Positions 1,672 through 57,638 of a stretch of 64,000 bases of DNA are shown here, piece by piece. The position numbers were made by a program, and so were the translations under genes. The stretch lies in assembly GCA_024231025.1 (NCBI GenBank), contig JAAEQW010000120.1:2324-66323 (forward strand), read 5' to 3'. The notes beneath the pieces are model-generated. The model saw nothing but the letters and a program-made list of their open reading frames with translations, was not told the origin of the DNA and did not search any database. This DNA is from Candidatus Omnitrophota bacterium (lineage in GTDB: Bacteria; Omnitrophota; Gorgyraeia; Duberdicusellales; 4484-171). Position 1 is the first letter of the stretch; every line of letters begins with the position of its first letter.

Positions 1672-4600
1672 TTATTGAACGGTGATTGTTGGAGAATCGC
1701 CGCTGATTGCTCCATCATCAACCGTTATGGTTACTGTTTGTCCAATGAGCGCGCCAACTGGAATTACAAATTGAAATGCTCCTTCAGCACTACCCATATC
1801 AACCGTTGCATCATCTATGCCGGTAACTGTTCCGCCAAAAGTTACATCGCTTGAATCACTAGGCACTGCGGTCCTGTTTACCGCGTTAGTTCCTGACAAA
1901 TAGCCACAAGCGTTTTTATGGTAAACCACAACTGAAACCGTCTCCCCTGCTAGAGGGGTTAACGTTGCCGGCTGAACTTCATACCAATCCTGACCAGAAA
2001 TCGCCCCGCCTTGATAATCAACAGAAGGCACATCACCGCTAACAGTTGTCATGCCACTAATGTAATTATTGTCCTTGTCTTTAATCCCACCGGTACCGTT
2101 ATCGTCTCCTCTAACATCTAAGTTAAAAGTTCCACCTAAGGTTAACGGGTTAGAAAGGTGCAGCGTTACGTTGTCTTCATACCAACAAACGGTATGGATA
2201 TCGCCTATGCCATTGTAATTATCTTTGTTTTGCGCGTTATCCGAATCGATATCCTCATCAAAGTAAACATGAACGAGGTATGGTGTTTCAGCCACTGCTT
2301 CTAAAACTTCCGGCGGATTAGTATCGCTTGATTGAAAACTAACTGTTATTTCAGCGCTTTTGATTGTTGCATCACCTGCATCCTCTAATTGGAATTTTAC
2401 ATTTTCAACTTGAGAATTTTCTAAAGCAAATTCGCCTATTCCATCAACGAAAGTGATTGAACTAGGGTCAACATAGCTACTGGAATCGTTTGTACTTTCC
2501 GAAAGAATGTTAACGTTCACCGTAGCGTTGTACCCACCAAGCCTTACCCCTGAGGCATCATTACCAGAGTAAGCAGTAAACCTTATCCTTGTTCCGGCTA
2601 CTTGATAACCACTGCTAAACGAAGCGCCAGAATAAACATAAAGTTTATCGACACCTAAAAAGTTAACATTTTCGGCAACATCACCTACGCCACTGACCGA
2701 GAATATAATATTCACTTCTTCCGCTTCGCTGTTTTCTAAGGTGAGTAATATTTCCCCGTTATCTCCACCGGCACCAGTAAATGAATAACTCCCCGCCACA
2801 ACACTACCACCTTTCCTTAAAACCGCACTGCCATTACTATTTTCCTCGCTTACGGTAATGTTTACTATACCGGCATAATCGGTAACAAGATTGCCTTGAT
2901 TATCAATTGCGCTTAGCCAAATTTGACCCTGTTGGTTGGTGCTAACTGCACCTGGCCCCTGACTAACAAGAGCATCAATAGCCGCACCGGTAACAGAAGT
3001 AAGGGCAACATTTAAAGTTCTCTCAGCTGAAGCATTGGTTCCCACCTCAACACTTACTGTAATTGTTTCTGGCTCAAGAGAATCCACGGTAAAATATCCC
3101 ACTCCATTAAACATCGCAACCTCACCTACACCACCGGTCATTCTGTCTCTCACCGAAAGAAGCCAGCTATTTTGCATACGACTAGAGCTTTCAATTACAT
3201 CAACAATAATTGAATCAGCAAAATTAGTTGCGACTATTGTTTCACCTGCATTCTGCCAAGCCGTAAGTTTAACCATTACCGGATCACCCACCGAAGAAGA
3301 AGCTGATCCTACTGCTGTAATGCCGACATGATCAACTCCAGTTGCTGGTGGAGTTTTTGCTGTTAAAATATACGCGTTGGTGTCCTGATTCGGTACTGAA
3401 TCTTCGGCTCTTACCCGAAAATGATATTCGGTATTTGCACTTAAGCCAGTAATGCCATAAGTGCACTCATTATCACTGGCACAATTAACATTAGCTTTGG
3501 TTAAATCAGCTACCGTTGTACCAAGGCTTGAAGTTTCGCCATAGTCAATGTCATAAAGAATCGTTGCATCACTGTCTGTGGCTGCATTCCACTCTAGAGT
3601 AATCGTACCAGCCGCACCAGGAGCATAAGCATGTTTTACACCGGCAAATGTAGGCGCAGCTGTATCTACGGGTAAGGCTCGTGCTGTTTCGCTTGCCTGA
3701 ACTACTCCGTTATCTTCAACGTCTTCGTCATCCGCTGAACGCACCAGAAAATCATAAGTTGTACTAGCCGTCAAACCAGAAACTTGATAAAAGCGCTGAG
3801 CCGTAATTGCATCTGGTGAACTAAAATCAAATGCTCCAGGCGATGCTACCCAATACACATTATAGTGATCAGTAGCCGCATTAGGGTCGCTCCAAACAAG
3901 ATCAACTGTTCCACCGGTACCAGCTATCGGAGTCAAAGAGGTAATCCCCTGGCGGTTTACAGCTATCTGAATTTGCATGCTGTCATAGGCTTCATCATTA
4001 TCGCGGGAACCGTTGCTATTGGTATCATTGTAAAAAATAAGACCGCCTTGATAGGTAACTGCTGATGCTTGCCCGGCTAAAACGGTAACTGCTATTTGAC
4101 GAGTATCGCTAGACTGCCCATCTAAACTAAAAGGCGAAAAATTATTGCTAATGCTGCTACCCGGCATTGCAAACGGCCCAGCGATTAAATCAGTGGCGTC
4201 AATATTAATTTGCATCGTGCTGTCGCTATTATTTTCTATGGTGATATTAACCCCCACCGACGTCTGGTTAGGATCAGCTCCGCCAAGATCAAGTGATTCT
4301 TCCTGAATATTTAAATCTATTCCTGCAGAGCCTGAAGAGCTTACCCCCAATATGATGACAATACCATCAAAAGGTTCACCATCATCGAAAAGTCCATTAC
4401 CGTTAAGATCGCCGTATACTCTCGCGCCTCCTGTGTAAGCGCCTGAAGGTTGGCTAGAAGGCACGCTTACCGTGATCGCTCGGCTAACTGATCCACTCCA
4501 AGGTTCTATGCTGATTGGAACAAATGTTATGTTGTTACTGCTAATCGTATTTACCCCTGAGATAAGATTACTAGGCTCAATTCTCACGACAATTGTTTGC

Positions 4601-7600
4601 GCCATATTATTCATGATGTTGACATTACGCTCAGCGCTAGCGCCGGCATCAACCGTCGCATAATTAAGTGACGCTTCGCCAACCTCTAGATCTCTGTGAC
4701 CTCCACCGCCGGCGGAGCTGACAAAAAGATGAAAGCCAATAGTTTCAAGCGGCTCATCAGTATCTAAGCTACCATTAGAATTAGTATCATTAAACATTGA
4801 CACCATTGTCCCGTACTCTCCGTCAACCGCATTATCAGGAATTACTACCCGCAAACGCCCTATATCGCTGGCACCAACAGCCAAAGAAGAAGGAATGTCA
4901 GCCTCGACGTTAAACCCTGCTACAGCCTCGAAAGATCCCTCACCAGGACCAGTAAACTTATAGAGCTGAATCGTAGTGGTAATAATATTATTTAGAGCTG
5001 TAGTAGCGGTATTCTGTAATGTAAATTCACCCCAAGAAGTGGTTGACCCTGGAGCATAATTCATAAAATCTAAGCCACCATCCCCAGAAATATCTAATCC
5101 TTCGGCACCGAAAAACAAAAAGATTTGCACATTTTCCCAATATTCATCATCATCTCTTATGCCATCATCGTCTTCATCATCATAAAAAGTAATCTCACCG
5201 ACATACTCTCCGGGAGTAACTCCGGTAGAAGGAATGCTAACGCTAGTTGAAATATCAAGCGAACTATTGGCCGCAACAGCATAAGGAGACGCTGGACTAA
5301 GATTAATATTGGAGCTATCAATTTGAGTTATCATATCAGTTGTATTACTCAAATAAGATGATAGTTCAACTTTTATATTAGCTTGGTGTGACGAAAGATT
5401 TTGTAGCGTAATCGTTTTGGTTTCGGTATCTTGACCAACCACAATTTCTTCAAAGTCGAGTTCCGGAGGATGATGAGCACTATCGGATGTTGTAATGTTT
5501 ATGCTCCCTCCAGATGCACCACCAGTTGCGAATGCCTCAACCTCACGAGGAGAATAACTGCTTTCGCTACCATCATTCATTGTGCAAGTCACTGTAATGT
5601 AATAAGGAACACCGGATTGCAAACCACCAATTGTTGTCCGAGTGATTGACGGATCACTGACTATTACAAAATCAGGATAGGTTCTGGAAGAACGACCATA
5701 ATAAATCTTGTACCCATCTACTCCGGAGACATAATCCCAACGAACTATTATTTCGCCAAAATTATAAGTCTGCTCAGTCCAAATGTTATTAGGATAAGGA
5801 ATGTTCGTTCCGGTAAGTTCAAGAAATTCCTCTAAAGTAGTATAACCAAGACCGCCATTAGCATCATAGGCCTTTATTACTGCATAATAAATTTGTCCAT
5901 CGGTAAGATCTGTTAACTGATGCTCTGTGACTTGTCCTACATTTTTGGGTGAGCCTTCACCATTGTAATTGCCCGGTGCCGTGCCATACCATATTTCATA
6001 GTAACTTGCCCAATCAATATAATCCCAACTTACATCCAACGTTCCAGAACCAGCTGAAGCAAGATACGCTTTTGCTTGGAGCATATTGCCAAAATAAATA
6101 TCTCCTAACAACATTCCACGATCATCCTCAGCAGCAATCCGATCTACTGGTTGATAAACCTCATTGGCTGAAATTGTTGTTTCATAAACTGATAGCCCAG
6201 GACCTTGAGGAAACCAAAATTCTCTTCGCTGTCCATCACTAAATTCTAAAACACACTTCGGTGTAAAATAAACTGGACTTGGAAACTCAAAACGCACGCC
6301 TAAATCCTGACCACCAATCGGCGGATCAGGATTAACCATAATATGGACTCCTTGGCTATAGGGACCTCCACTAAAAGGTCTATCGCCCAAGAAACCGCCC
6401 TTATCGTCAAAAGCAGCAATTCGACTGATTGGCGCATTTATTTCACTAGCTGCCACATAAATATCATAAGATGATCGCCCTTCTTCTCCGGTATAAAAAA
6501 ATCGCTTTGCTGTGCCATTATCAAATTCAACTTCAATTTGAGGCTTGAAAAATTCCGACTGAGAAAACTCCAATCTTACATTCAGATCAGCAAACACCAC
6601 CGGCGGATCAGGCATAACCATAATGTTGACACCGTCAGACCCACTATGACTCAATAAAAAATCACCAAGAAACATTCCCCGGTCATCTTCTATTACTACT
6701 CTATGTAAAGGGCCGACCATCTCAGAAGAAGGAATTGTTGCTTCATACATAGAAAGACCAACACCTTGAGGAAACGACAACGCTCTTCGCTGGCCGTCTG
6801 TAAACTCTAAGATTAATTTCGGTACAAAATAAATTGGACTCGGAAAAGACGTTTTTATAATTAAATCCTGCCCGGCAATTGGCGGATTAGGCATAATATC
6901 AATCATTGGGCCACCAACATTCATTGAACCGAATAAGCGTTCGGCAATTAGCGTTCCTTGCTCATCTTTAATTGCTATTCGTTCAATATTTTTGGTTATT
7001 TCCCCACCCGGAATAACCCGCTGATAAATAGTGTCACCAACATCTTGAGGGAATCCATACCCCGTATAACTGCCATCACTGTATTCCACAACTATAATCG
7101 GATGATAATAAGCTGCACTCTCAAGTTCTACCCTAAGATTTAAATCCTGATACGGCATTGGTGGATCAGGATTAACAGTAATCATACCTCCCGTTGGGGC
7201 AGGACCTGACATCTCTAAATTGTCTCTTACTACGCCATAAGGATCCAACAAATCAATACCCACCAAAGGCTTAGTTAAAGGATCAATAAAATCATGAAAT
7301 CTGCTACCCGGTAAATCGCCTTGCATTGTTATTTCTTCAACTACTCCATCCATATAGCGATAACGCAATCTCATTGCCAACGGAGAAACCAACGGAATCT
7401 CTGCGTTAACATCCAACCGCTGACCAACGATCGGCGGATAAGGATTAACTACCAGCCCTTGACCGTCAAAGTTTGTCTGCGCGCCAAACATCCGATCACC
7501 AAGATGCATTCCACCCTCGTCTTCAACATCAATAATTAGCAAGTTCGCATTAAAACGATCCGCACTAAGCATCGCCTTGTATTCTCGCCCCTGACCGGTA

Positions 7601-10600
7601 ACATTCAAAAATTCACGCGCGCCATTGTCGAGACCCGCCACTATTTTCGGCGTGAAGTAAGGCTCATAGTCAAAATGTACAACAATTTCTAAATTACTTC
7701 CGAGTTGCGGCGGATCAGGTATAACATCAATTAGAATTCCCCCCATCATTGGACCACCGGAGCCAAAGAAACGATCGCCTAAGAACATTCCTTTATCGTC
7801 TTGAACTTCAATGCGATGAATCGGACGACGAATATCGGAAGCCGGCAAAGACGTTTCATATCTAGTCTTGCCAGGTGCTTCATGTTGCATATAAATCGGA
7901 AATCTTCCTCCATCATTAAATTCTAGTTCGATTTTTGGCACAAAATAAACTGGACTTGGAAACTCAATTTTTATGTTTAACGGCTGATTTGCAATTGGCG
8001 GATCAGGCATAACATTAATATTTGCCGCAGCACTCATCATTGAACCAGTCGAAAATATTCTATCAACAATAAACATACCTCCACGATCATCTTCAATTGC
8101 TATTCGGTGTAGCGGCCGCATATTTTCAGCGGCTACCACATTTAACTCATACAATCTTGCCCCTGACTCCTGGGAGAACCAAAAATCTTTACGCGTTCCG
8201 TCTTCAAATTCTAAAACTGCTTTAGGCTTGAAATAAACAGGTTCTGGAAACTCAACTTTTATACCTAAATCCTGATGCGGCATTGGCGGATCAGGATTAA
8301 CGATTAAGTTGGCCCCCATTGCGCTACTTGAGCCACCGCCACCAACAAAACGATCAGCAATATGCATACCTCGATCGTCTTCGATAACAACACGCTGCAG
8401 CGGCTCAATAATTTCAACACCACGTAAGGTTATGTAGTAGGCATTATTGCCCGGAGACTGCGGAAAAATTTTCCCATTTCTTGCACCGGATGAAAACTCT
8501 AAAACCACTTTTGGCGTAAATTGAACCGGATAAGGAAAATCAACATGCACAGTCAAGTCCTGGTGCGGCACTGGCATATCCGGTGTCAATTTTATATCGG
8601 CACCATCTACTGGACCAGCGCCAGTGCCAAAAAATCTTTCAGCTAAAATTAATCCGGTTTCATTCTCAACCACCACTCGCTGCAAGTCTTCCTGCATTTG
8701 ATAGGCCGAGGCACTAAACTTATAAACAAATAATCCCGGCTCCTGAGGAAACCTAAATTCTTGACGCGCACCGCTAACAGATTCTAAAATCAATTTGGGT
8801 GTAGTTGGTAGTGGATAAGGGAACTCTACCCTTATCCCCAAAGGTTGATTACGACGCGGCGGATCAGGCATAGTCATAATATTTCCTGTGCCCATTACCG
8901 GTCCTCCTCCAAATGGCTGATCGATTAAAAACATTCCCCGGTCATCCTCAATTACCGCTCGACGAAGCGCACCTTTTATTTGACTACCGTCAATATTCAT
9001 GTAAAAAGTATTTACATTTTTTTGTGGAAAAACAAACTCTTCTCTTCGGCCATCATCATACTCTAGAAATAACTTAACCGCAAAATTAACCATATTAACA
9101 AATTCCAAATTAACATTTATACTGTCTCCGGGAAAAGGATTATGCGGAGTAACTCTAAAATCTCTTACCATTGTTTGCTGAGTTTGATGCATAAATCCGA
9201 CGCTATGCCTTACTGTGCCAAACGGATCAAGTAAATCCAACCCTACCGCTGCTTTCTCTAATTGTCCAATGTGAGCATTAAATCTTCTGCCCGGTAAGCG
9301 TCCATCAAAGGCGTACTCCTTACTGGAACCATCACTATAGATTATGCGCGCTTTTGGCGCTTGTGGAATTAACATTGGAAGCGTAAGCTCTATATCGAGC
9401 GGCTGCCCTTCTATCGGAGGATCAGGCATAATTCTTAAATCAGGTCCGCCGAAATCAGCCCCGCCACCGGATCCACCAAAGAAACGATTACCAATTGGTC
9501 GACCCCGATCATCCTGAACATCAATTGAAACAAGACTTGATTTAACTTTGCTGCCAGGAATAATTACCTTAAAATCTCTCTTTTCGCCAGCAGCAACTAA
9601 AAACTCTCCGTAACCTTCAAATTGCACGCTAACCTGAGGAACAAATGGAATATCCTGCATAAAATGTAAATAAATTTCAAGATCCTTACCAATTTCGCCA
9701 GCGGGTTCAGGATTTATTCCTATGTCTACGCCTCTAGCAACAAACTCTTCTAAATAAGCTACGATTTCTCTGCTTTCGCTAAGCATCTTTCCCTGACCCA
9801 AAGCAAAAACTTTAATAAAATTTGGTACTCCTTTTGGCAAATTAGTAAGCATATAACTTTTTTCAGAAGTTTCCATTGAATTTGCATATCCTCCGGGAGA
9901 ATTACCCCAACTAACGCGATAGCTGTCAGCTCCAGGATAATCACCCCAAATAAGACTAACTGAATCCGGCATTATAATGTCTTGGACATGCAATTCTCTA
10001 CGTAATTGACCGCACACCGATGAGACAATTGGCGAGCGCATAATTTCCTGTTTTCTGGAGTCATAGGCAATAATTTCAAAAGAATATCTTCGGCCCTGCA
10101 TTAATCCCCTTAATTGATGTCGAGATTGACCGCGAATTTCTATTTTCTCCTTTAGATTTTCTCCTTCACCATAAAGTAGCTCATAGAATGATACCCGCGG
10201 CAACCTTTCCCAAAACAGCTCAAAACCATCATTGCCTTGTGGCTTTACATCCAAATACAAACCGGGCATATTGCTTTCTTGCCCAAAATTAATCATTCTT
10301 TGGGTAAGCAACCGCCCTGTGGGATCAAATACGCTTACCGCAATATTATCCAAAGGCGCATCAACAGGAACAACGAATCTACCCATAAACTCCCGTGAAT
10401 ATGGAGATCCAGCCAGAGGAACATCAACAATCTTTCCTGCAAAATCTAAAGCTAAGCGAGGGACAAAAGGAATCTCATTATTAGCCCTAATCATAAGACT
10501 AGCTGTTTCGCCGCTGATTAAATCAGATGTAAGTTCAATATCAAATTCAAGTGAAACGTGACCACCACCGATAAACTCAACCGGCATGCTTACGAAAATA

Positions 10601-13600
10601 TTTCCCTCTTGATCTGATATCTCAACAGTTTCTAATGGGCTTTCTAACCTAGGCAATGTCGCACTGAACATATCACCAGGAATAGCCCCATAAAGCTTTG
10701 GCTCTTGGGAACCTTGGTCAAAAATAAGTTTCAACCGCGGTCTAAAATTTATTATCCCAGGAGCAACGACTTTCACTGTCAATGGCTGACCAATCATTGG
10801 CGGCATCGGCTCAATCATAATTCTGCCTCCTCCCGCATCAGGGCCATGTTGCTGCGGCCAATAATCGCCAATAATATTGCCACGATCATCGTAAACTTCA
10901 ATCACTGCCTCACGTGTAGGTTCCTCAGGAGCATTAAATTCCCCTTGAAACCTATTGCCAGGAATAGCACCTTTGAGATTGATTTTAATATCTTTTTGAT
11001 CGGAAATAAATTTCGCTTCCGGCTTAAAGAAAAGAGCTGCATCTGACTCCACATTAACAACCACTCTATCTTTTGGTCCAAAATCGCCGCCCTCGATCCA
11101 AACCCTTAATCCTCCTGGGGCCGGACCTCCGGCATCTTCAATAATTTCAGCCATACCGGCACCAACTAAATCTCCTCGATCATTATAAACTTCACCAATA
11201 ACCATTCCTGACGAAGCATAATCAGGTATAACAAAGTTTCCCCGATATGAATTGCCGGCTCCCTGCATAACAACATTGAGTTTTCTTCCATCAGCAAAAG
11301 TTAAAGAAGCCTTAAGCTCTCTCTTTATCGGACGGCGAGAATTTAATTGAATTGTGCCTGCCTGCATTCTTCGCAATACACCAGGCATTATATAAACCTC
11401 GGCCCCGCCACGCGCCCTTAAAGATGGCACAATTCTAGTTGGAAATGTATCCAAAACCATACCTTGGTCATCTTTCACAACAAAAACTCCCATACCACTT
11501 GGAACATCTTGGGCTAACTTCAATTCTACTTCAATGCTATTTAGCGGAGGCTTTTGTTTCACGGGCATATTTAAAACCTTACCGGTATTTAACCGCAGTT
11601 GAAGTTGCGGCACGAAATCGATCGTTTCTGAAAATACTGCTTTCGCATTAAATGACGCCCCGCTTACCAGCGGTGTTGGGTTAGTAGTTAAAAATACATC
11701 TGCTCGGTGCGCGCTCTCTGATTCATCCCAAACACCTATCCGACGCCGCACCTCATCAGGTGTTGCCGGATTAAGTATAAGTTGCGCCATGCCTAAAGGA
11801 ACGTCTTTAGGGCAGGCAAATTTTCCTCTGAACTCCCTGCCGCCTCCTGACAAAGCAACCGCAATTTTTTTACCATTGCTAAAGATAAAATCAAGCTTAG
11901 GGGGCTCTTCTAAATCACCTAAAGTATTTAACACAAATTCAACGCCCTCGCCCCTTGTAATTGGATCGGGCATTACCATCAAAGCATAAAAATCATCCTT
12001 GCGCGAAACTTTGAGCCATTCGCTTGATAAACCAATTTCAAAATAAGCATGATCATTCAATTGTCCGCTTGCGACTTCAACCATGCCCCTGCCAATAGGC
12101 GAATCATTATCGATAACATATTGACCATTATAGACTCTGCCATTTTTATTGAGTGCTAACGCAGCTTTTCTCCCATCAGGAAAACTAATTACCGCATTGA
12201 TATCATCTTCTAATCTCTTCAATGGTTCAATTACAACTGCTAAGGCTGCACCTTGGGCAACATGACGAGGCATATCAATCTTAAAATTTCCAGCACCCTC
12301 TGTAATGAGCAACGGCAATGGAACTTCAATTGCTAAAGGCATTGATTCCAATCCTGCATAATTTTTAGCTTTCAACTTAACTAAAATTACAGCTCCTTTC
12401 TCATGCATTTTACTAAGCTCTAAAAAATCAATAGGTTTGTTATAGGCAAATTTTCCTTCCGCATCCGCCATGATATCAGCAACAACCTCTCCATACTCCA
12501 AGTGAACAACTGCATCAGTTGCCGTTAAACCTCGAATTATGAAATGCTGTGGATTAAACTCTAAAAACTCCAAACTTAATGGCAAATCTGTTTGACGTTG
12601 CGGAGGAACAATGCCGACTATCTTCTCAGAGCTTGTGCCGGGATTACCCGATAGATCTTCTCCTCCGTTTAGTTTAAAAACCACTTCGCCCAACGGCGCA
12701 TCTAATGGGACCTGTATCTTCGATTGAAGCTCGCGTTCATTAACTTTTACCAAGTCAAGCTTTTTACTTTCTCCGGCCGGCATTTGCGCAAAAAGCTCAG
12801 GTGCAATTGCCAAGGCTTCGGAAGAAAAAACTTTAATGTTCGACTCAACGCCTAAGACTAAAGGTGAAGGATCAACTTCAATAGAAAAACTTGGCACAAT
12901 ATTATCTTGAGCAGTTAGTGTAAAGCTAGTTGCACCTTGCGTCTGGCTTGATTTATTACCAGCCTCATCTTGGCCCTGTACTTGGATCTCGACCAATGCC
13001 GGCGACAAGCCTTCGGTATCCATACGAGCAATAAACTGTGCGCCTTCGCCTTCAACGCTAAGACCAATTGTTTTTCCATCAACTACGGCAGTTACCGCTG
13101 GATTACCGGCTACAATATCTAAGCCGTTCGTCTGTGAATCAATACTGTTGATTTCAACATATACTGGATTACCGATAATCGCCGGAAGAGGCTTAACCTC
13201 CAAAACAAAAATTGGCGGCCACATATCAGGTGGTGTTATTTCCTTGGTTACTGAACTACTACTACCTATGTAGTCAGTAGCGGTAACGGTTAACATCCCT
13301 TCGGTGAAAGAAAATTTATGACTAAACTCTCCATTTTTGCCAAAATCAACGTTTACACCATTAATCATTAAAGACGCTAATCCACTTTCGCCATCAACTG
13401 CCTTACCCGAAACAACTACCACCTGTTCGTCTTTTAAGTATTCCAATTCACCCACCTCAAGTAACGGTGGATTATTTTCGAGTTCGACAACAATAATCGT
13501 AGATGTTTGGTAAGGATCATCTGCTTTGACTTCGATTTCCTTTGTGCCAGCAGATAAAACCTGCCTGCTCTCAAAAGCACCATCACTATCTACAGCAACG

Positions 13601-16600
13601 GCCTCTTGCGCAACAAAAACTTTCATATTTTCTTTTGCATAAGGAGTAATTGCATGAGCAAAAGGCTTAGACTTATTTCCCCAAAGATCTTGGGCCTCTA
13701 CAACTAAATCTAATGGCTCACAAAGTCCCTGACTAACCTTACCTTTTAAGCTCAATTGCCCATCAATGTAAAGAGGCTCCTCTAAAAGAAGTTGCGGTGG
13801 TTCGATTATCAGATCTAATTTCAATTTGAAAGCCCCATCTTCTGATACATCAACTAACTTATCCAAAACATAAACTCCCTTTATACCTGAGGAATCCTGC
13901 ACTCGACCAGAAACAAAAAGGCTCCTGCTATGATATTGAACCTCCATATCTTTTAACTCTGGGGGTTCTTTATCTTCGGGGATTTCTGTTTTACGCGGAC
14001 CCTCAATTGCTTGATTACCTGCAATATCAACCGCACTCACCGAAACCTCGCGCAAATGCTCTGTTAAAACTGCCTCGTAATTAAAGTCTATCACTTTTTT
14101 TATGTCGTAGATGATCGGTACTCCGTTTATCTCGATGCCTTTTACAGCCACATTATCCCTCACCTTACCGGAAATAATTAATTTACCCTCTCTAACTTCC
14201 CAAATATCAATTGTAATCTCCGGTGCAATAGTATCTTCTAAAGCTAAAATCTCTTTGGTTTCTTTGCCAGAAAGATCGCGCGCAAGGACCTCTATTGATT
14301 GGGTGTTGTTATCGACTACAATTTCATAATAAAAACGTCCGTTACCTTCTAACTCAACTTTCTGTTTAGCAATTAATAAGCTTTCAATTCCAGTATCATC
14401 CTCAACTGAACCAGAGATAATCACCCTGCCACCTTTATCAAAGACTGGTTGAGAAAGATATAGAGTTGGTGGTCTTTCATCAATTAACGGCTCAATTTTT
14501 AAGCGAACCTCTTCTGACTTTTTTCCTCCTACATTAAGCGCAACTAAAATAGCTTCGATTTGGTGTTTGGGTCTTTCTGTTTTAATGACAAATGAACCAT
14601 CACTTGATGCGGTAACTGCTGCATTAGGCAACTTGCCGCTTTCATCAAGCACTTGAGCCTGTGCTTCGGTATTTCCTGAAATTTTTACGCTATCTTTTTC
14701 GTAAATAATTGACGATATTTCCAATAACGGCGGATAAACACTGCTTAATGGAAATACCTGCGGAGTTGATTCGTTACCTTTAGCATCTTTGGCTTCGACA
14801 GTGATAGATTGCACTTCTCTGCTTAGGGCAAGTTCATATTCAAACCCTCCGTCCGAGCCCAAAGAAGCGGCATTCTTATTAATTAAAACTACCGGTGGCG
14901 GTAGGCTAAAATCTAGAGCAGCTTCTATTGTTTCTTTATTGCCCGCGCCGTCAATTGCTTCCAACGACGCTTTGATATTTCTTATCGTAACCGAAGAACT
15001 CACGCTAAAGCGCCCACCTTCAGTGGTTTCTACTTCTCTATCAAAAATGGTAAGTTTAGCTATCCCCAGACCCAAATCATAAACCGTACCCTCAACAGTT
15101 GCCATGAGTTTTTCTTCAACTGAACCAGTTACCTTCGCTATCTTGCCAATGTATTCAATAGGGCTAACACTAACTATTGGAGCAAGATTGTCAGTATATA
15201 CAATATTTGTTATTTCAATTATTGGCTTCCATTTATCTTCAATATTCACGCTTACTTCATTAGCCTTGCTTTGATCTAAATTTTGCCCTTTAACAATCAG
15301 GGGAGCGGCCAACATTCCCTTATCAGGAATTATTTTAACCTGGAATAAACCAGATTCATCACAGAAAACACTTTGCCCGGCTGTTTCAATTTTACCACCG
15401 GCAATAAACTTACCCTTTAGGATAAAGTGGTCTTCTTTATAATCAACTGCTGCATTTTCGATAGCTCCGATGAGAGTTCCAATTTGTGGCTCTACTTTTA
15501 TTTCCAATGGCGGAGATTGATTGTTGCCAATGTCTTGAGCAACAATTGTCAATTTATCCAGTTTGGGTGATGCGCTAGTTTTATAAACGAATTCTCCATT
15601 TTTGGCAAAATTAATCGCACAACCGTTAACAAAAATGGCGCTTACTTCAGTATTGTCAGTTGCTAATCCCTCTACTAAAATATCGGTCCCTTGCTGAGAA
15701 AAATTCATAACCTGAACCACCGGAGGCTGAGCGTCTTTTACTTCTTTTAATTTTTGCTTTGCCTGGGCAAGCAAAGACCGAGCAAGATTTACATCTCCTT
15801 TATCGACCGAAGCCTTTATCCGCTCGACTATTGCTTTAACTTCTCTGATGTCAAAACCTAGATCTCTCTTCCTTTGAAAATGCTTCAAAAACTGCTGCCA
15901 ATCTGCTTTGAATCCAGCGGGTAAGGCAAGTGCGGCCAAGGCCTTCTTGATTTTTTCGTATATCTCCTCTATCCCTTTAACATTGCCATCTTTTTGAGCA
16001 TTCTTTAAACTGCGTAAGTGATCGTAAATTACCCCTAATTCATAGCCCAATGATTTTTTGTATTCAACATCCTTTATTAAATCTTGAATTTTGCGTTCCC
16101 ATTCTAAAGGAACATTTTTTTTAACAACAACCAAAGCACTTTCGATTGCCTCTATAGCGGTTCTTAACTTTAAAAATGACTCTGCCTCTAAGAGCTTAAA
16201 CGCAATTTCAAGCTTGAGTTTTAAATCAACAACATCATAGCCTTCCCTTTCTTTGTTGCTAATCGCCTCACCGGCTGCCTTTAATTTCTTTTCCAAATAA
16301 ATCGGCATCTCTTTAAGGGCAGTATGAAGCTTTTCGTCGGCTTCCTTTAGCAGACTATACGCTTTAGCGTGATTTTTTTCTTGATAATATATGTAGCTTT
16401 GTCGCAATAATTCCTTCACCTCACCAACAGAAAAACCTTTCACTTCTTTAGCTAATACCAACTCCTGCAATTTTTGGTAGTCAGACAAAAAGTCTGAGTC
16501 TGTTTTTTTGCTGACCGAAGCTACTCTCTGCTCTAGGAGAGCAATCAATTTTTCCACTTGGCGAACATTTTTGTCTTGCAAGGCCTCTACGACTTCTCCT

Positions 16601-17502
16601 AATAACAGATAAAGCTCAACTACATCATAGTTTTCTTTTTCTTTAGCTTCTATTTGAGTTCTTAGTTCATCTAATTTTGTAACGTACTTCTCAACATTGT
16701 TAGGTTTCTTTGCTTTCTCAAGATAAACAAATGCTTTTTCGATCAAACCGTCAACGCGCGCATAATCACCCTTTTCCAGCAAAGCAAAAGCTTCCTCGAT
16801 AATGTTTTCTACTTTACTGACCAAATACCCTTGATTCTTCTTTTCCTGAAAAGCAGCAACCAATTCCCTCAAAAATAAACGCAGCTCTTGAGCTGCCTGC
16901 GTCTGGTGATCAGCCTCTTTTTGCACATCACCGCTAAATTCATCATGTGAATCTTCGTCTCTTGAATAAATATCACCCTCTTTTTGTGACGATCCATTTT
17001 CTCCTTGAGAATCGGTGTTGTAAGTCTCTCCTTCGATAAGGATATTTTTCGATTCTTTATCTTGTCCTTTGGTTTGCAGCAAGCCTTCCGTTCCGGTAAT
17101 ACCAACAATCGCAGTAGAAGAGTGAATCTTAAATTCGGACCCTTTCTCTTTAAACGGCGTTACTTTATAGCGCATCGCACCCAAATGTAATTTTAACTCG
17201 CGATTGCTTAATTTTGTTTTGGGGTTTTGCGAAAGGTCTTTGACCTCCATTAGGGAATTCTCACCAAGGCGAAATTCACTTTCATCAGGATAAACAAGTA
17301 AAACGCTTGACTCAAGAAACGTTCTAATCATATCACCGGTAATGAGTTTGGTTTTATTCTTTACCTTTGTCCATTCACCTTGACCGGATTTCTGAACTTG
17401 GACAAGACCGGTACGTTCTTTAATTTCCAAAAACGAATCTCCCGCAGATACCATAAGAGGAAAAGATATGATTATTAAAATAATTAAAATTTTCTTCTTC
17501 AT
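1672..17502 (-). CDS. giant secreted multi-domain surface/adhesin-like protein (~5,276 aa from the MKKK start). It contains a signal peptide, a FecR-like N-domain, an alpha-helical repeat region, Ig-like beta domains, at least 13 tandem ~93-aa PDPP/DDRG modules, FN3 domains, acidic Ca-binding-like loops and C-terminal Ig-like domains.
   Basis: A single uninterrupted 15.8-kb ORF. The start ATG at 17500-17502 has GGAG 5 nt upstream. The track's longer start at 17547 is a GTG with no RBS. The signal peptide is MKKKILIILIIISFPLMVSAG. A FecR-like block reads GLVQVQKSGQGEWTKVKNKTKLITGDMIRTFLESSVLLVYPDESEFRLGENSLMEV. Repeated helical E/K-rich ~45-aa units occupy aa ~215-620. Tandem modules with I/MPDPP...VEFPxPVYFxPK...LEFxDGxR...IEDDRGMFL...FGGGG follow. 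FN3-like blocks include WDYIDWASYYEIWYG and WDYVSGVDGYKIYYG. D-rich loops include DDEDDDGIRDDDEYW, NDTNSNGSLDTDEP and DLNGNGLFDDGEPFDG. Confidence 0.9.
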   Translation of the reverse strand: MKKKILIILIIISFPLMVSAGDSFLEIKERTGLVQVQKSGQGEWTKVKNKTKLITGDMIRTFLESSVLLVYPDESEFRLGENSLMEVKDLSQNPKTKLSNRELKLHLGAMRYKVTPFKEKGSEFKIHSSTAIVGITGTEGLLQTKGQDKESKNILIEGETYNTDSQGENGSSQKEGDIYSRDEDSHDEFSGDVQKEADHQTQAAQELRLFLRELVAAFQEKKNQGYLVSKVENIIEEAFALLEKGDYARVDGLIEKAFVYLEKAKKPNNVEKYVTKLDELRTQIEAKEKENYDVVELYLLLGEVVEALQDKNVRQVEKLIALLEQRVASVSKKTDSDFLSDYQKLQELVLAKEVKGFSVGEVKELLRQSYIYYQEKNHAKAYSLLKEADEKLHTALKEMPIYLEKKLKAAGEAISNKEREGYDVVDLKLKLEIAFKLLEAESFLKLRTAIEAIESALVVVKKNVPLEWERKIQDLIKDVEYKKSLGYELGVIYDHLRSLKNAQKDGNVKGIEEIYEKIKKALAALALPAGFKADWQQFLKHFQRKRDLGFDIREVKAIVERIKASVDKGDVNLARSLLAQAKQKLKEVKDAQPPVVQVMNFSQQGTDILVEGLATDNTEVSAIFVNGCAINFAKNGEFVYKTSASPKLDKLTIVAQDIGNNQSPPLEIKVEPQIGTLIGAIENAAVDYKEDHFILKGKFIAGGKIETAGQSVFCDESGLFQVKIIPDKGMLAAPLIVKGQNLDQSKANEVSVNIEDKWKPIIEITNIVYTDNLAPIVSVSPIEYIGKIAKVTGSVEEKLMATVEGTVYDLGLGIAKLTIFDREVETTEGGRFSVSSSVTIRNIKASLEAIDGAGNKETIEAALDFSLPPPVVLINKNAASLGSDGGFEYELALSREVQSITVEAKDAKGNESTPQVFPLSSVYPPLLEISSIIYEKDSVKISGNTEAQAQVLDESGKLPNAAVTASSDGSFVIKTERPKHQIEAILVALNVGGKKSEEVRLKIEPLIDERPPTLYLSQPVFDKGGRVIISGSVEDDTGIESLLIAKQKVELEGNGRFYYEIVVDNNTQSIEVLARDLSGKETKEILALEDTIAPEITIDIWEVREGKLIISGKVRDNVAVKGIEINGVPIIYDIKKVIDFNYEAVLTEHLREVSVSAVDIAGNQAIEGPRKTEIPEDKEPPELKDMEVQYHSRSLFVSGRVQDSSGIKGVYVLDKLVDVSEDGAFKLKLDLIIEPPQLLLEEPLYIDGQLSLKGKVSQGLCEPLDLVVEAQDLWGNKSKPFAHAITPYAKENMKVFVAQEAVAVDSDGAFESRQVLSAGTKEIEVKADDPYQTSTIIVVELENNPPLLEVGELEYLKDEQVVVVSGKAVDGESGLASLMINGVNVDFGKNGEFSHKFSFTEGMLTVTATDYIGSSSSVTKEITPPDMWPPIFVLEVKPLPAIIGNPVYVEINSIDSQTNGLDIVAGNPAVTAVVDGKTIGLSVEGEGAQFIARMDTEGLSPALVEIQVQGQDEAGNKSSQTQGATSFTLTAQDNIVPSFSIEVDPSPLVLGVESNIKVFSSEALAIAPELFAQMPAGESKKLDLVKVNERELQSKIQVPLDAPLGEVVFKLNGGEDLSGNPGTSSEKIVGIVPPQRQTDLPLSLEFLEFNPQHFIIRGLTATDAVVHLEYGEVVADIMADAEGKFAYNKPIDFLELSKMHEKGAVILVKLKAKNYAGLESMPLAIEVPLPLLITEGAGNFKIDMPRHVAQGAALAVVIEPLKRLEDDINAVISFPDGRKAALALNKNGRVYNGQYVIDNDSPIGRGMVEVASGQLNDHAYFEIGLSSEWLKVSRKDDFYALMVMPDPITRGEGVEFVLNTLGDLEEPPKLDFIFSNGKKIAVALSGGGREFRGKFACPKDVPLGMAQLILNPATPDEVRRRIGVWDESESAHRADVFLTTNPTPLVSGASFNAKAVFSETIDFVPQLQLRLNTGKVLNMPVKQKPPLNSIEVELKLAQDVPSGMGVFVVKDDQGMVLDTFPTRIVPSLRARGGAEVYIMPGVLRRMQAGTIQLNSRRPIKRELKASLTFADGRKLNVVMQGAGNSYRGNFVIPDYASSGMVIGEVYNDRGDLVGAGMAEIIEDAGGPAPGGLRVWIEGGDFGPKDRVVVNVESDAALFFKPEAKFISDQKDIKINLKGAIPGNRFQGEFNAPEEPTREAVIEVYDDRGNIIGDYWPQQHGPDAGGGRIMIEPMPPMIGQPLTVKVVAPGIINFRPRLKLIFDQGSQEPKLYGAIPGDMFSATLPRLESPLETVEISDQEGNIFVSMPVEFIGGGHVSLEFDIELTSDLISGETASLMIRANNEIPFVPRLALDFAGKIVDVPLAGSPYSREFMGRFVVPVDAPLDNIAVSVFDPTGRLLTQRMINFGQESNMPGLYLDVKPQGNDGFELFWERLPRVSFYELLYGEGENLKEKIEIRGQSRHQLRGLMQGRRYSFEIIAYDSRKQEIMRSPIVSSVCGQLRRELHVQDIIMPDSVSLIWGDYPGADSYRVSWGNSPGGYANSMETSEKSYMLTNLPKGVPNFIKVFALGQGKMLSESREIVAYLEEFVARGVDIGINPEPAGEIGKDLEIYLHFMQDIPFVPQVSVQFEGYGEFLVAAGEKRDFKVIIPGSKVKSSLVSIDVQDDRGRPIGNRFFGGSGGGADFGGPDLRIMPDPPIEGQPLDIELTLPMLIPQAPKARIIYSDGSSKEYAFDGRLPGRRFNAHIGQLEKAAVGLDLLDPFGTVRHSVGFMHQTQQTMVRDFRVTPHNPFPGDSINVNLEFVNMVNFAVKLFLEYDDGRREEFVFPQKNVNTFYMNIDGSQIKGALRRAVIEDDRGMFLIDQPFGGGPVMGTGNIMTMPDPPRRNQPLGIRVEFPYPLPTTPKLILESVSGARQEFRFPQEPGLFVYKFSASAYQMQEDLQRVVVENETGLILAERFFGTGAGPVDGADIKLTPDMPVPHQDLTVHVDFPYPVQFTPKVVLEFSSGARNGKIFPQSPGNNAYYITLRGVEIIEPLQRVVIEDDRGMHIADRFVGGGGSSSAMGANLIVNPDPPMPHQDLGIKVEFPEPVYFKPKAVLEFEDGTRKDFWFSQESGARLYELNVVAAENMRPLHRIAIEDDRGGMFIVDRIFSTGSMMSAAANINVMPDPPIANQPLNIKIEFPSPVYFVPKIELEFNDGGRFPIYMQHEAPGKTRYETSLPASDIRRPIHRIEVQDDKGMFLGDRFFGSGGPMMGGILIDVIPDPPQLGSNLEIVVHFDYEPYFTPKIVAGLDNGAREFLNVTGQGREYKAMLSADRFNANLLIIDVEDEGGMHLGDRMFGAQTNFDGQGLVVNPYPPIVGQRLDVNAEIPLVSPLAMRLRYRYMDGVVEEITMQGDLPGSRFHDFIDPLTKPLVGIDLLDPYGVVRDNLEMSGPAPTGGMITVNPDPPMPYQDLNLRVELESAAYYHPIIVVEYSDGSYTGYGFPQDVGDTIYQRVIPGGEITKNIERIAIKDEQGTLIAERLFGSMNVGGPMIDIMPNPPIAGQDLIIKTSFPSPIYFVPKLILEFTDGQRRALSFPQGVGLSMYEATIPSSEMVGPLHRVVIEDDRGMFLGDFLLSHSGSDGVNIMVMPDPPVVFADLNVRLEFSQSEFFKPQIEVEFDNGTAKRFFYTGEEGRSSYDIYVAASEINAPISRIAAFDDKGGFLGDRPFSGGPYSQGVHIMVNPDPPIGGQDLGVRFEFPSPVYFTPKCVLEFSDGQRREFWFPQGPGLSVYETTISANEVYQPVDRIAAEDDRGMLLGDIYFGNMLQAKAYLASAGSGTLDVSWDYIDWASYYEIWYGTAPGNYNGEGSPKNVGQVTEHQLTDLTDGQIYYAVIKAYDANGGLGYTTLEEFLELTGTNIPYPNNIWTEQTYNFGEIIVRWDYVSGVDGYKIYYGRSSRTYPDFVIVSDPSITRTTIGGLQSGVPYYITVTCTMNDGSESSYSPREVEAFATGGASGGSINITTSDSAHHPPELDFEEIVVGQDTETKTITLQNLSSHQANIKVELSSYLSNTTDMITQIDSSNINLSPASPYAVAANSSLDISTSVSIPSTGVTPGEYVGEITFYDDEDDDGIRDDDEYWENVQIFLFFGAEGLDISGDGGLDFMNYAPGSTTSWGEFTLQNTATTALNNIITTTIQLYKFTGPGEGSFEAVAGFNVEADIPSSLAVGASDIGRLRVVIPDNAVDGEYGTMVSMFNDTNSNGSLDTDEPLETIGFHLFVSSAGGGGHRDLEVGEASLNYATVDAGASAERNVNIMNNMAQTIVVRIEPSNLISGVNTISSNNITFVPISIEPWSGSVSRAITVSVPSSQPSGAYTGGARVYGDLNGNGLFDDGEPFDGIVIILGVSSSGSAGIDLNIQEESLDLGGADPNQTSVGVNITIENNSDSTMQINIDATDLIAGPFAMPGSSISNNFSPFSLDGQSSDTRQIAVTVLAGQASAVTYQGGLIFYNDTNSNGSRDNDEAYDSMQIQIAVNRQGITSLTPIAGTGGTVDLVWSDPNAATDHYNVYWVASPGAFDFSSPDAITAQRFYQVSGLTASTTYDFLVRSADDEDVEDNGVVQASETARALPVDTAAPTFAGVKHAYAPGAAGTITLEWNAATDSDATILYDIDYGETSSLGTTVADLTKANVNCASDNECTYGITGLSANTEYHFRVRAEDSVPNQDTNAYILTAKTPPATGVDHVGITAVGSASSSVGDPVMVKLTAWQNAGETIVATNFADSIIVDVIESSSRMQNSWLLSVRDRMTGGVGEVAMFNGVGYFTVDSLEPETITVSVEVGTNASAERTLNVALTSVTGAAIDALVSQGPGAVSTNQQGQIWLSAIDNQGNLVTDYAGIVNITVSEENSNGSAVLRKGGSVVAGSYSFTGAGGDNGEILLTLENSEAEEVNIIFSVSGVGDVAENVNFLGVDKLYVYSGASFSSGYQVAGTRIRFTAYSGNDASGVRLGGYNATVNVNILSESTNDSSSYVDPSSITFVDGIGEFALENSQVENVKFQLEDAGDATIKSAEITVSFQSSDTNPPEVLEAVAETPYLVHVYFDEDIDSDNAQNKDNYNGIGDIHTVCWYEDNVTLHLSNPLTLGGTFNLDVRGDDNGTGGIKDKDNNYISGMTTVSGDVPSVDYQGGAISGQDWYEVQPATLTPLAGETVSVVVYHKNACGYLSGTNAVNRTAVPSDSSDVTFGGTVTGIDDATVDMGSAEGAFQFVIPVGALIGQTVTITVDDGAISGDSPTITVQ
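6150..9800 (-). repeat. intragenic tandem repeat array of at least 13 copies at ~280-bp period (93 aa) inside the giant gene; more degenerate copies extend to ~11400
   Basis: A recurring DNA core, the reverse complement of ATTATGCCTGATCCGCC (encoding IMPDPP), appears at approximately 6321, 6601, 6881, 7161, 7441, 7715, 8000, 8285, 8570, 8860, 9135, 9420 and 9710. The protein copies are highly similar (for example LIVNPDPPMPHQDLGIKVEFPEPVYFKPKAVLEFEDGTRKDFWF versus INVMPDPPIANQPLNIKIEFPSPVYFVPKIELEFNDGGRFPIYM). Confidence 0.85.
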
Positions 17503-17532
17503 CCCGACTCCCTTACTAAAAAAATCGCTCAT

Positions 17533-17568
17533 ATAAAAAATCCCCACAACTTAGTAGCTATGGGGATT
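17533..17568 (-). promoter_or_regulatory. intrinsic-terminator-like hairpin plus U tract in the 5' leader of the giant gene (possible attenuator, or terminator of the upstream HTH gene)
   Basis: The minus-strand RNA reads AAAUCCCCAUAGCUACUAAGUUGUGGGGAUUUUUUAU. A 7-8 bp stem (AUCCCCA/UGGGGAU) with a ~14-nt loop is followed directly by UUUUUU, about 30 nt upstream of the RBS/ATG at 17502. Coordinates are +/-2 nt. Confidence 0.4.
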
Positions 17569-17687
17569 TATTGTAGTGTTTTATTCGGTAACTGACTGCC
17601 ATAGCTCCTAAGACCTTAGACTCTTGAGTTTTGCGCCCTCACCTTTCGATGAGTTTGCCTTTTTCGCAAAAAGAAATAACCTAATTT

Positions 17688-17912
17688 TTAAAGATCTTTT
17701 TGTCTATTTTTTCTTTTGAGTTGCTGTCTTCGTTTAATTCTTTTTTCAACCCAATGTTCAAGCAAATCTCTCTTAAAGCGCCACTGCCCTTTAAGCTTAA
17801 AAGCAGGAATGTCTGTATCTTGAATTAACCGATATATAGTAATCGTGTGCACCCCTAAGTATTTAGCGGCTTCGCTTGCACTCATTATTTGAAGACGTTT
17901 ATACTGGCTCAT
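17688..17912 (-). CDS. small HTH DNA-binding protein, excisionase/MerR-like HTH_17 family (74 aa)
   Basis: The segment SASEAAKYLGVHTITIYRLIQDTDIPAFKLKGQWRFKRDLLEHW is typical of the excisionase-family HTH_17 domain, followed by a basic tail. The RBS AGGGGG lies ~5 nt upstream of the ATG at 17912. The gene is on the same strand as the giant gene and 185 nt upstream of its start. Confidence 0.7.
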   Translation of the reverse strand: MSQYKRLQIMSASEAAKYLGVHTITIYRLIQDTDIPAFKLKGQWRFKRDLLEHWVEKRIKRRQQLKRKNRQKDL

Positions 17913-17987
17913 ATTTCCCCCTAATTTGGGTATAGCATATTTTGTTAAAAATTACCACTTTTTATCAAATATTTTCCATTTTTATGT

Positions 17988-18017
17988 ATTGCTATGCATT
18001 GCTATGAATTGCTATTG
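17988..18017. repeat. three head-to-tail 10-bp direct repeats ATTGCTATGC / ATTGCTATGA / ATTGCTATTG (putative operator/iteron array) in the divergent intergenic region
   Basis: Read directly: ATTGCTATGCATTGCTATGAATTGCTATTG at exact 10-bp (one helical turn) spacing. The array lies 45 bp upstream of the -35 of the plus-strand promoter and ~75 bp upstream of the HTH gene start. Confidence 0.6.
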
Positions 18018-20481: not shown

Positions 20482-20506
20482 ATTGTCAATCACGCAAATG
20501 GAGGTA

Positions 20507-21418
20507 ATGATGCGATTAATAATGATTATTGTGGTGATTTTTACAGGTTGTTCAACCATTAACCCAAAAATGCTTGTAAACCCCTACGAACCGCTTTATT
20601 ACCGCGGGACCGACAGCTTTGATAACAAAGATTACACAACCGCTATCGAAGCATACTCTCGTTTTCTTGAAAAATGCCCTGATTCCTCTTTTACCATTCC
20701 GGCAAAACTAAATTTAGCAATGGCATATTACCATCAAGAAAAGTGGCAATTGACTCAAAGCACTTTAAAGGACGTAAAAATAACCGATTCCGCTATCAGC
20801 AAATTTGTCAACGATACATTAGCTACTTGCGAAAAAAAACTAAATCCAAATGGCAGCACAACGAGTGAAAAAACAGAAACACAACCACAAGAAGAAGTAG
20901 TAATTACGATTACTGACGCTTACTTAGATAACGCTGACATGCTTAATTTAACCGGAACCGTATCTAGAGAGGGTAAAATTTATATCGGCCAAATAGCAGC
21001 TGATTTTCAAAAAGATAATACGTTCACCATCATTTCGCGTTGGCGCAAGGGCAAGCCGATTATTATATCCTGGCGTAAAGACGGACTCGAGCAAACTCTA
21101 GATTACTATCCCGACAATGAAGAACCGCAAGCCCCTGATGGCCTTTTTCGACGCAATATGAGCGATAATACCGTTGAATTGGAATGGAACGACAATGATG
21201 AGGGCGATATTAAAGGCTACAAATTATACTATCAATTAAGCGGCAGTGGATCACTTCAGGAAGTGCGTGATATAATTGAAGATACAGACTTCGAAGTGGT
21301 TGGTTTGCAAAATTTAATTGATGGCGCAAATAAAACTTTTCGTTTTTACCTTAGAGCCGTAGATAAAATGAATAATTATTCTGATCCGTCAGACACCCTA
21401 GAGGTAACTTTGCCTTAA
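20507..21418 (+). CDS. lipoprotein with a TPR-like region and a C-terminal fibronectin type III domain (~303 aa)
   Basis: GGAGG at 20500-20504 is followed by ATGATG. The lipobox IFTGCS is present. TPR-like segments are DYTTAIEAYSRFLEKCPDS and LNLAMAYYHQEKW. An FN3-like block reads VELEWNDNDEGDIKGYKLYYQ...FRFYLRAVDKMNNYSDPS. It starts 2 nt after the OMP gene stop. Confidence 0.55.
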   Translation: MMRLIMIIVVIFTGCSTINPKMLVNPYEPLYYRGTDSFDNKDYTTAIEAYSRFLEKCPDSSFTIPAKLNLAMAYYHQEKWQLTQSTLKDVKITDSAISKFVNDTLATCEKKLNPNGSTTSEKTETQPQEEVVITITDAYLDNADMLNLTGTVSREGKIYIGQIAADFQKDNTFTIISRWRKGKPIIISWRKDGLEQTLDYYPDNEEPQAPDGLFRRNMSDNTVELEWNDNDEGDIKGYKLYYQLSGSGSLQEVRDIIEDTDFEVVGLQNLIDGANKTFRFYLRAVDKMNNYSDPSDTLEVTLP

Positions 21419-21419
21419 A

Positions 21420-54910: not shown

Positions 54911-55448
54911 TCAAAACCACCTCTGTTCTTTTCATCACATAATCAACCAACTTTTTAACCGATTCTGCTGCTGTTTCTTTTTCCGAATCTATTATTAGGT
55001 CCGGCATTGTCGGCGCCTCATAATCCACTCCACCAAAACCGATTAGATCGATTATTTCGCGATCTTTAGCTTTACAATACAAGCCCTTCACATCACGTTG
55101 GGTTACGCAACCTAAGCCAGCGCTAAAATAAATTTCATAAAAATTGGGTGCTAGCTTAGAGCAAGCATCGCTACGGGATACTTTAAACGGCGATATTATA
55201 GGTACCATGATGACATCATAGCTATCTTTATTTTCTTCACAAATTAAAGTAATCAAACGATTATTCTCTTTGATATCTTCCGGAGTAAAGCTCAAATGCT
55301 GGTGATACCTTTCTCGTACCTGATCGCCGTCTACGATAAATGTCATCAGACCTTTCTTTTCTAAAACTTTAGCCGCCTGCACGGCAACGGTTGTTTTGCC
55401 TGAACCGGAAAGCCCCGTAAACCAAAAAATGTTAGAGTTTTTTTTCAT
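54900..55448 (-). CDS. cysC: adenylylsulfate (APS) kinase, 182 aa
   Basis: FWFTGLSGSGKTTVA P-loop and the FIVDGDQVR segment match APS kinase. Confidence 0.9.
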   Translation of the reverse strand: MKKNSNIFWFTGLSGSGKTTVAVQAAKVLEKKGLMTFIVDGDQVRERYHQHLSFTPEDIKENNRLITLICEENKDSYDVIMVPIISPFKVSRSDACSKLAPNFYEIYFSAGLGCVTQRDVKGLYCKAKDREIIDLIGFGGVDYEAPTMPDLIIDSEKETAAESVKKLVDYVMKRTEVVLNES

Positions 55449-57622: not shown

Positions 57623-57638
57623 ATGTAGCCTGCCTTTA

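Follow-up and report, generated by a model that had tools for sequence, protein, structure and literature searches.

A diverged tandem array of Ig/FN3-like domains in a giant FecR-domain protein of Candidatus Omnitrophota, probably old and now stable in length

Introduction

The group B streptococcal alpha C/Rib proteins, staphylococcal SasG/Aap and Marinomonas MpIBP all carry near-identical tandem repeats, which recombine readily and are polymorphic in copy number. A second kind of array is found in titin and twitchin, where diverged immunoglobulin (Ig) and fibronectin type III (FN3) domains are arranged in super-repeats and the FN3 domains start with proline-rich motifs. Here we analyse a tandem array of ~93-residue units in a giant FecR-domain protein, encoded on the minus strand of a 64,000-nt window of contig JAAEQW010000120.1 (Candidatus Omnitrophota bacterium, assembly GCA_024231025.1, positions 2,324 to 66,323; all positions given below are those of the window unless a locus is named). 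A sequence-only reading of this DNA had drawn attention to a short core recurring through the gene and taken it as a sign of recent expansion or concerted evolution. We conclude that the array is very likely old: a diverged series of Ig/FN3-like β-sandwich domains in the exported part of the protein, in which one class of unit, here called C-type, multiplied lineage by lineage and whose length is stable now.

Comparison with the known systems places the array between the two kinds. As in alpha C/Rib, SasG/Aap and MpIBP, a large, probably exported protein consists mostly of tandem β-sandwiches of ~80-130 aa, an arrangement whose length is thought to set reach; unlike those arrays, this one has a mean DNA identity of 46% between units and saturated synonymous sites, and Tandem Repeats Finder sees nothing in it. 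It shares with titin and twitchin old, diverged sandwiches, a super-pattern (A-B-C5-A-B-C4, with seven-unit offsets) and a proline-rich motif near the domain start, but it comes from a bacterium and is not related to them in sequence; the unit goes unmatched by the Pfam fn3 model, and Foldseek gives a TM score of only ~0.5 to FN3.

Giant proteins have been described from Omnitrophota, both the Archaeovorins and the Dockerin-type (10.1101/2023.11.21.568195) and tandem-repeat scaffolds (10.64898/2026.06.07.730766). The protein studied here is likewise a very long exported repeat protein, probably from the same phylum, but it is far shorter than those of 30,000 aa or more, and HEAT, dockerin and TSP3 domains are absent from it; neither paper mentions FecR. 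The more recent of the two, a 2026 preprint on long Omnitrophota proteins, reports the same general pattern and comes to a conclusion that agrees in general terms with ours (10.64898/2026.06.07.730766). A parallel for the gene neighbourhood is the BiofilmReg operon of Burkholderia, in which the gene of a FecR-domain protein is paired with a CHASE2 sensor (PMC5192318). There too an exported FecR-domain protein is encoded beside a CHASE2 membrane sensor, although its sensor is a histidine kinase and its partner a LysM+FecR protein encoded by a gene of ~1.4 kb (PMC5192318); in our window the partner is 5,291 aa long, a cyclase serves as sensor and two genes for TPR proteins lie in between.

Results and discussion

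The repeat motif is contained in a single minus-strand open reading frame (ORF) of 5,291 aa, and its periodic in-frame repetition is real and far above chance, as judged by motif counts, profile units and a self dot-plot. With 30-nt windows and at least 22 identical positions, the DNA dot-plot yielded 610 off-diagonal windows, compared with 0-6 in codon-shuffled controls, and 96% of them lay at offsets near multiples of 281 nt. The off-diagonal lines expected by the sequence-only reading are therefore present, though faint and broken. Its account of the core itself was less accurate. The quoted 17-mer ATTATGCCTGATCCGCC, said to recur at least 13 times, has zero exact copies; six near-matches are found at up to two mismatches and eight at up to three (chance expects 0.00 and 0.11), all of them minus-strand sites that keep phase and fall within 6320-9432. 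The commonest exact 17-mers are present in two copies each and the 11-mer CCTGATCCGCC in six. What recurs is a peptide: the core encodes a conserved (V/I)-x-P-D-P-P motif, with 12 P-x-P-P sites in the protein. Successive sites lie 282, 279, 279, 273, 276, 288, 288, 288, 285, 558 and 1383 nt apart, so that the supposedly strict period of ~280 bp is in fact a spacing of 273-288 nt. Tandem Repeats Finder detected no array of period near 280 nt, even at score 30.

Arrays that expanded recently are expected to show DNA identity of ~90% or more. Here the units are 33-61% identical in DNA (mean 46%) and on average 31% identical in protein (maximum 53%). The proportion of synonymous differences between units (pS, Nei-Gojobori) has a mean of 0.69 and a range of 0.51-0.85, at or near saturation, and for that reason the between-unit ratio of non-synonymous to synonymous divergence (dN/dS) was left uninterpreted. 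The few synonymous changes remarked on earlier hold for about four core codons; across whole units the synonymous sites are saturated. At positions where two units share an amino acid the codons are identical in 1,052 of 2,184 pairs, against 931 expected from the codon usage of the gene, an excess of just 1.13-fold. Resampling simulations (n=1000), in which codons were redrawn on the fixed protein and codon preferences tied to the neighbouring residue were ignored, gave a whole-unit DNA identity of 0.451 (observed 0.461) and a core identity of 0.664 (observed 0.738). The amino-acid motif and ordinary codon bias account for about nine-tenths of the conservation seen in the core DNA. Recent expansion and concerted evolution, and with them recombinational instability, are not supported by these data. 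The DNA resemblance between units would be the residue of purifying selection on the protein and of codon bias after synonymous saturation. More generally, a brief conserved stretch of DNA that recurs in a repeat-protein gene does not by itself imply that the repeats expanded recently or are unstable; in this gene such a core is what a conserved peptide motif and codon bias leave behind.

The array proper comprises 13 contiguous units, R1 to R13, which fall into A-, B- and C-types in the higher-order pattern A-B-C5-A-B-C4 (table 1). DNA autocorrelation peaks at offsets of 1977 and 2256 nt, and the pattern suggests either an old block duplication or a common A-B-C-A-B ancestor of the kind retained in one relative, P0004. 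On its N-terminal side the array is interrupted by a region that we read as a pair of FN3 domains, the second of which is suggested by the length of the region and a 'YRVSWG' motif; this region aligns with four relatives at 41-51% identity. Beyond it lie older units of the same fold, termed N-type, and our first profile left marginal traces further still, up to ~12880. The earlier description of 9800-11400 as degenerate copies thus holds only in part: the FN3 pair is not one of them, while two strong and two weak diverged units do lie beyond it. In the history that we favour, the present A-B-C5-A-B-C4 array would sit downstream of N-type units and an FN3 pair that are older than itself.

Each unit probably folds alone into a seven-strand sandwich joined to the next by a short Gly-rich linker. 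AlphaFold2 predicted this fold for a single unit with a predicted local distance difference test score (pLDDT) of 93.7, only the last ten residues being uncertain, and three separate seven-strand sandwiches for a three-unit construct (predicted TM score 0.41), whose linkers (residues 90-94 and 183-188) had pLDDT <50; the three-unit prediction leaves the geometry between domains unfixed. In the model the PDPP motif is placed just after strand A and the Gly-rich 'FGxGG' segment forms the linker. The units also have a conserved E-D-D-R-G loop, a candidate site for Ca2+ dependence. Foldseek searches of the PDB gave generic FN3/Ig matches only (best 5dft_B, E=0.042, TM 0.51). No Pfam family, fn3 (PF00041) included, matched more than one of 15 units at E≤1, NCBIfam had no match to the unit, and a profile search of PDB sequences gave nothing below E=1. 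When 1.84 billion representative proteins were searched exhaustively with the profile, 73 matched at E≤1e-3 and 21 of these reached E≤1e-30; those that are full-length mostly have 3,000-5,000 aa and contain the unit many times. The unit is an uncatalogued and rare domain family, ordinary in fold class, and its definition is one outcome of this work. The array probably serves as a stalk or spacer, and its extent would then determine how long the exported protein is. If one sandwich spans ~4 nm, the 13 units would add ~50 nm.

The nearest relatives (P0001, P0002, P0004 and P0005) align colinearly with the window protein (36-42% identity across about 3,000-3,860 residues) and share with it the order of the units N1 and N2, the FN3 pair, A and B. 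Family members that carry a name are annotated as 'FecR domain-containing protein [Candidatus Omnitrophota bacterium]', and a neighbouring polysaccharide gene finds its best genome matches in Omnitrophota metagenome-assembled genomes (64% and 59%). No relative closer than ~42% identity was found in any collection searched (protein, genome-contig or metagenome-contig). A word-indexed homologue search with the 13-unit region returned nothing at E≤1e-5, an N-terminal query matched fragments only (38-43% identity), a genome-contig scan with the FN3-pair alignment found no relative, and a metagenome-contig scan yielded one weak locus, L001, at 23% identity.

The two strong N-type units have one-to-one counterparts in four relatives. 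For the strong N-type, A- and B-type units, a counterpart in at least one relative outscores any paralogue. The second A-type unit is the exception: its best paralogue scores the same as its match in P0005. In a neighbour-joining tree, the strong N-type, A- and B-type units fall into clades shared between lineages. The C-type units (R3-R7 and R10-R13) are instead nearest to paralogues in their own protein and join the single C unit of P0004 in the tree, and in P0001 and P0002 the C-type groupings consist wholly or mostly of own units. By best match to the window units, the layout is A-B-C-A-B in P0004 and a long, mostly C-type run in P0001 and P0002. Units scoring at least 15 bits number 15 here and 4-19 in relatives. 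That C-type tandem duplication changed copy number independently in each lineage is supported by this distribution, and the length variation proposed earlier holds in this restricted sense, between lineages and on a long timescale. The C-type units are saturated in every array compared (pS 0.68 here, 0.70 in P0001 and 0.76 in P0002), and the array would have grown by C-type tandem duplication long ago, separately in each lineage.

The array of P0001 (L002 8486-23422) merits separate mention. Its nine C-type units are 63% identical in protein with pS 0.70, and the longest exact run is 37 nt; it was conserved more strongly than the window array. High protein identity with saturated pS points to old duplication under purifying selection rather than to conversion, because conversion would have lowered pS as well.

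Several observations weigh against an array that is old throughout and stable today. The core codons are more uniform than gene-wide usage predicts, and no simulation reached the observed core identity: Val is GTT in all eight units that have it, the first Pro is CCT in 11 of 13 (35% gene-wide), and the Pro that follows the Asp is CCG in 8 of 11. The longest exact run between units, 26 nt in R7 and R13, exceeds all 1000 simulations, whose maximum was 24. The core excess and this run may be traces of somewhat later common ancestry or of small conversion tracts. No relative above 50% identity turned up in the collections searched, so present-day stability is something that we infer rather than observe. 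Finally, it is domain content only that suggests the spacer role and the surface location.

The first two of these points could be explained if short conversion tracts, or a later duplication among some C-type units, were superimposed on an old array, a possibility we regard as improbable though not negligible. It would account for both the uniformity of the core and the 26-nt run; the R7/R13 run (P<0.001) and a second-longest run of 17 nt (P=0.017) both exceed simulation, core identity is in excess (0.738 vs 0.664), and the pS of R7/R13, 0.58, is among the lowest of the pairs. The effect over whole units is tiny, however (0.461 vs 0.451), no tract is longer than 26 nt, and the simulation was made without the neighbour-dependent codon preferences that favour CCT-GAT and CCG-CCN. 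In the other ORFs of the window, CCT encodes 40% of the Pro residues that precede Asp and CCG encodes 55% of those that open a Pro-Pro pair; core Asp is GAT in nine of nine units. Neighbour-dependent codon preference accounts for part of the core codon excess.

The sequence-only reading went much further, suggesting recent expansion or concerted evolution, an array open to RecA-mediated slippage and a copy number that may vary from cell to cell or strain to strain; put at its strongest, the proposal is one of gene conversion and active unequal recombination today. For RecA-dependent exchange to be efficient, E. coli requires perfect identity over ~23-27 nt, and the process declines sharply as sequences diverge; RecA-independent slippage between short repeats becomes less frequent quickly with distance. 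After the run of 26 nt, the longest exact runs between units are 18, 17, 17 and 16 nt, the median among C-type units is 10 nt, and the two 26-nt arms are separated by 1,677 nt. This one pair apart, the array offers no substrate for RecA or slippage. The proposal correctly recognized that the in-phase DNA similarity is genuine, and it could also draw on the facts that the C-type units are nearer one another than to any unit of the relatives and that copy number varies among those relatives. Against it stand the low DNA identity and, above all, the saturated pS, which largely refutes it; the relatives compared are themselves only 36-42% identical overall, so 'lineage-specific' here covers a very long time. 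Length also agrees where two relatives are each represented by near-identical alleles from different samples: a single nucleotide in 12,405 distinguishes P0005 from P0075, which come from two sequencing runs and are equally long, and P0002 is identical in two Joint Genome Institute (JGI) samples; as these are short-read assemblies, this evidence is weak. We consider the proposal very unlikely.

A further alternative, that the core is constrained at the nucleotide or translation level independently of ancestry (ribosome pausing at D-P-P, or a DNA or RNA motif), has next to no plausibility: codon uniformity is concentrated in four or five core codons and each GAT-CCN junction yields a GATC site, but any Asp-Pro pair with the favoured GAT codon produces GATC automatically, the peptide motif persists in relatives although each of its three Pro codons varies and Asp is written as GAT or GAC, and no structure or motif test supports an RNA element. 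As the relatives retain PDPP with mixed codons (CCA/CCT/CCC/CCG and GAT/GAC), there is no nucleotide-level constraint general to the family. GATC methylation sites as the cause of core conservation were likewise rejected, being an automatic product of GAT-CCN, and assembly collapse was rejected since the units are too diverged to confuse an assembler.

On our preferred reading of an old, diverged array, homologous recombination would have almost nothing to act on, and copy number would be stable in populations and change over long evolutionary time only. The gene is expected to assemble reliably and to hold a stable length.

Table 1. Positions of the array, its constituent units and associated features in the window.
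Feature	Position	Strand	Evidence or remark
Giant ORF	1672-17547	-	5,291 aa; ORF list and translation
Older N-type units, same fold	10267-11703	-	strong: 10555-10833, 11428-11703; weak: 10267-10524, 11149-11409
Region read as FN3 pair	9736-10266	-	~177 aa, interrupts array; Pfam fn3 E=1.4e-9, one matched stretch
Strong array	6073-9735	-	13 contiguous units of 91-95 aa; own-profile hmmsearch, 74-125 bits per unit
R1 (first unit)	9460-9735	-	
R1 and R2, first A-type/B-type pair	9175-9735	-	best matches are positional counterparts in P0002 and P0004, above any paralogue
R3-R7, five C-type units	7747-9171	-	best matches are paralogues in the same protein
R8 and R9, second A-type/B-type pair	7192-7743	-	R8 closest to R1 (32%), R9 to R2 (40%), seven units apart
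R10-R13, four C-type units	6073-7194	-	
R13 (last unit)	6073-6354	-	
Span of 11 of the 12 P-x-P-P core sites	6319-9432	-	typical codons GTT ATG/AAT CCT GAT CCG CC
Twelfth, divergent P-x-P-P site	10798-10809	-	
26-nt exact run, arm 1, in R7	7942-7967	-	encodes EFPSPVYF
26-nt exact run, arm 2, in R13	6265-6290	-	
Divergent partner genes	18130-24005	+	TPR protein 783 aa, TPR+FN3 protein 311 aa, CHASE2 adenylate/guanylate cyclase 861 aa; Pfam

Architecture of the giant protein

The true start of the giant gene is likely the ATG at 17502, which gives a product of 5,276 aa. A ribosome-binding site, AAGGGAG, lies 5 nt upstream of this codon, and the annotated GTG start (17547) is overlapped by a hairpin and T-run. 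The product begins with MKKKILIILIIISFPLMVSAGD, an N-terminal segment that is the only strongly hydrophobic one in the protein. For these reasons we favour the start at 17502 and a protein that is probably exported or N-terminally anchored. The hairpin (17532-17575), which consists of a 20-nt inverted repeat with a run of T after it in the minus-strand reading, looks like the terminator of the helix-turn-helix (HTH) gene described below.

From N to C terminus the protein is made up of a signal peptide, the FecR domain, helical repeats, Ig-like domains, the uncatalogued 93-aa units, three FN3 pairs, Ig-like modules with acidic loops and a C-terminal region without a family match. The FecR domain (PF04773) covers ORF residues 73-173 and passes the Pfam gathering score (33.2 bits, cut-off 24). 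The helical-repeat region that follows has no family match in the Pfam mapping; it includes a second, unrelated repeat system of ~65-aa helical repeats at 195-nt spacing (16226-16644, minus strand; residues ~200-615). Ig-like domains of the Big_6 and Glucodextran_B families reach to ~residue 1550 and precede a long stretch without a Pfam match. Apart from the region that interrupts the array, Pfam FN3 matches are found at 5488-6072 and 3328-3927. Between these last two, at ~3930-5460 on the minus strand (residues ~4030-4540), are Ig-like modules with weak matches to ASH, Cep192 and DUF2141. Four acidic loops in these modules (DDDGIRDDDE, NDTNSNGSLDTDEP, DLNGNGLFDDGEP and NDTNSNGSRDNDEA) resemble calcium-binding DxDxDG motifs. 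Pfam detected no family in the C-terminal 550 aa, and no HEAT, dockerin or TSP3 domain in the protein as a whole.

Gene neighbourhood and other features of the window

The genes that diverge from the giant gene encode two TPR proteins and a CHASE2 cyclase (table 1). The same partners are found in the same order beside homologous giant genes in L002, L004/L005 and L006, with a DUF3307 gene sometimes inserted; across loci the typical sizes are ~830 aa for the TPR protein, ~310 aa for the TPR/FN3 protein and ~860 aa for the CHASE2 cyclase. An exact look-up of the neighbouring TPR protein returned no record. This analysis defines a conserved four-gene neighbourhood of giant FecR protein, two TPR proteins and CHASE2 cyclase, which points to a signalling module. 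The FecR domain at the N-terminus and the CHASE2 sensor may function together, and the domain arrays may form a long, flexible exported stalk. A more elaborate scheme, which we think rather unlikely, is a conserved contact- or reach-sensing module composed of the FecR protein, the TPR proteins and the CHASE2 cyclase, in which the unit array would be an extensible stalk, lineage-specific shifts in the number of C-type units would tune reach towards a host or prey cell, and FecR-CHASE2 contact would lead to synthesis of cyclic AMP or cyclic GMP. The setting is a phylum of host-dependent nanobacteria known for giant proteins, and the locus offers a concrete starting point for work on surface structure or on signalling.

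The giant gene and the TPR gene are separated by an ORF of 74 aa (17688-17912, minus strand) in which Pfam finds an HTH_17 domain (E=7e-15). The relatives have merely 135-274 nt at this position, and the ORF appears to be an insertion specific to this genome. The divergent promoter region also contains a 10-nt tandem repeat, TATGAATTGC, present in 3.3 copies at 17983-18015, which may be an operator.

At some distance from the array, a 737-aa ORF (55445-57658, minus strand) fuses a pyruvate kinase barrel, a PUA_2 domain and ATP-sulfurylase. It adjoins a sulfotransferase gene (57639-58838) within a ~40-kb glycan-synthesis cluster, and the combination of sulfurylase fusion and sulfotransferase suggests a sulfated surface polysaccharide.

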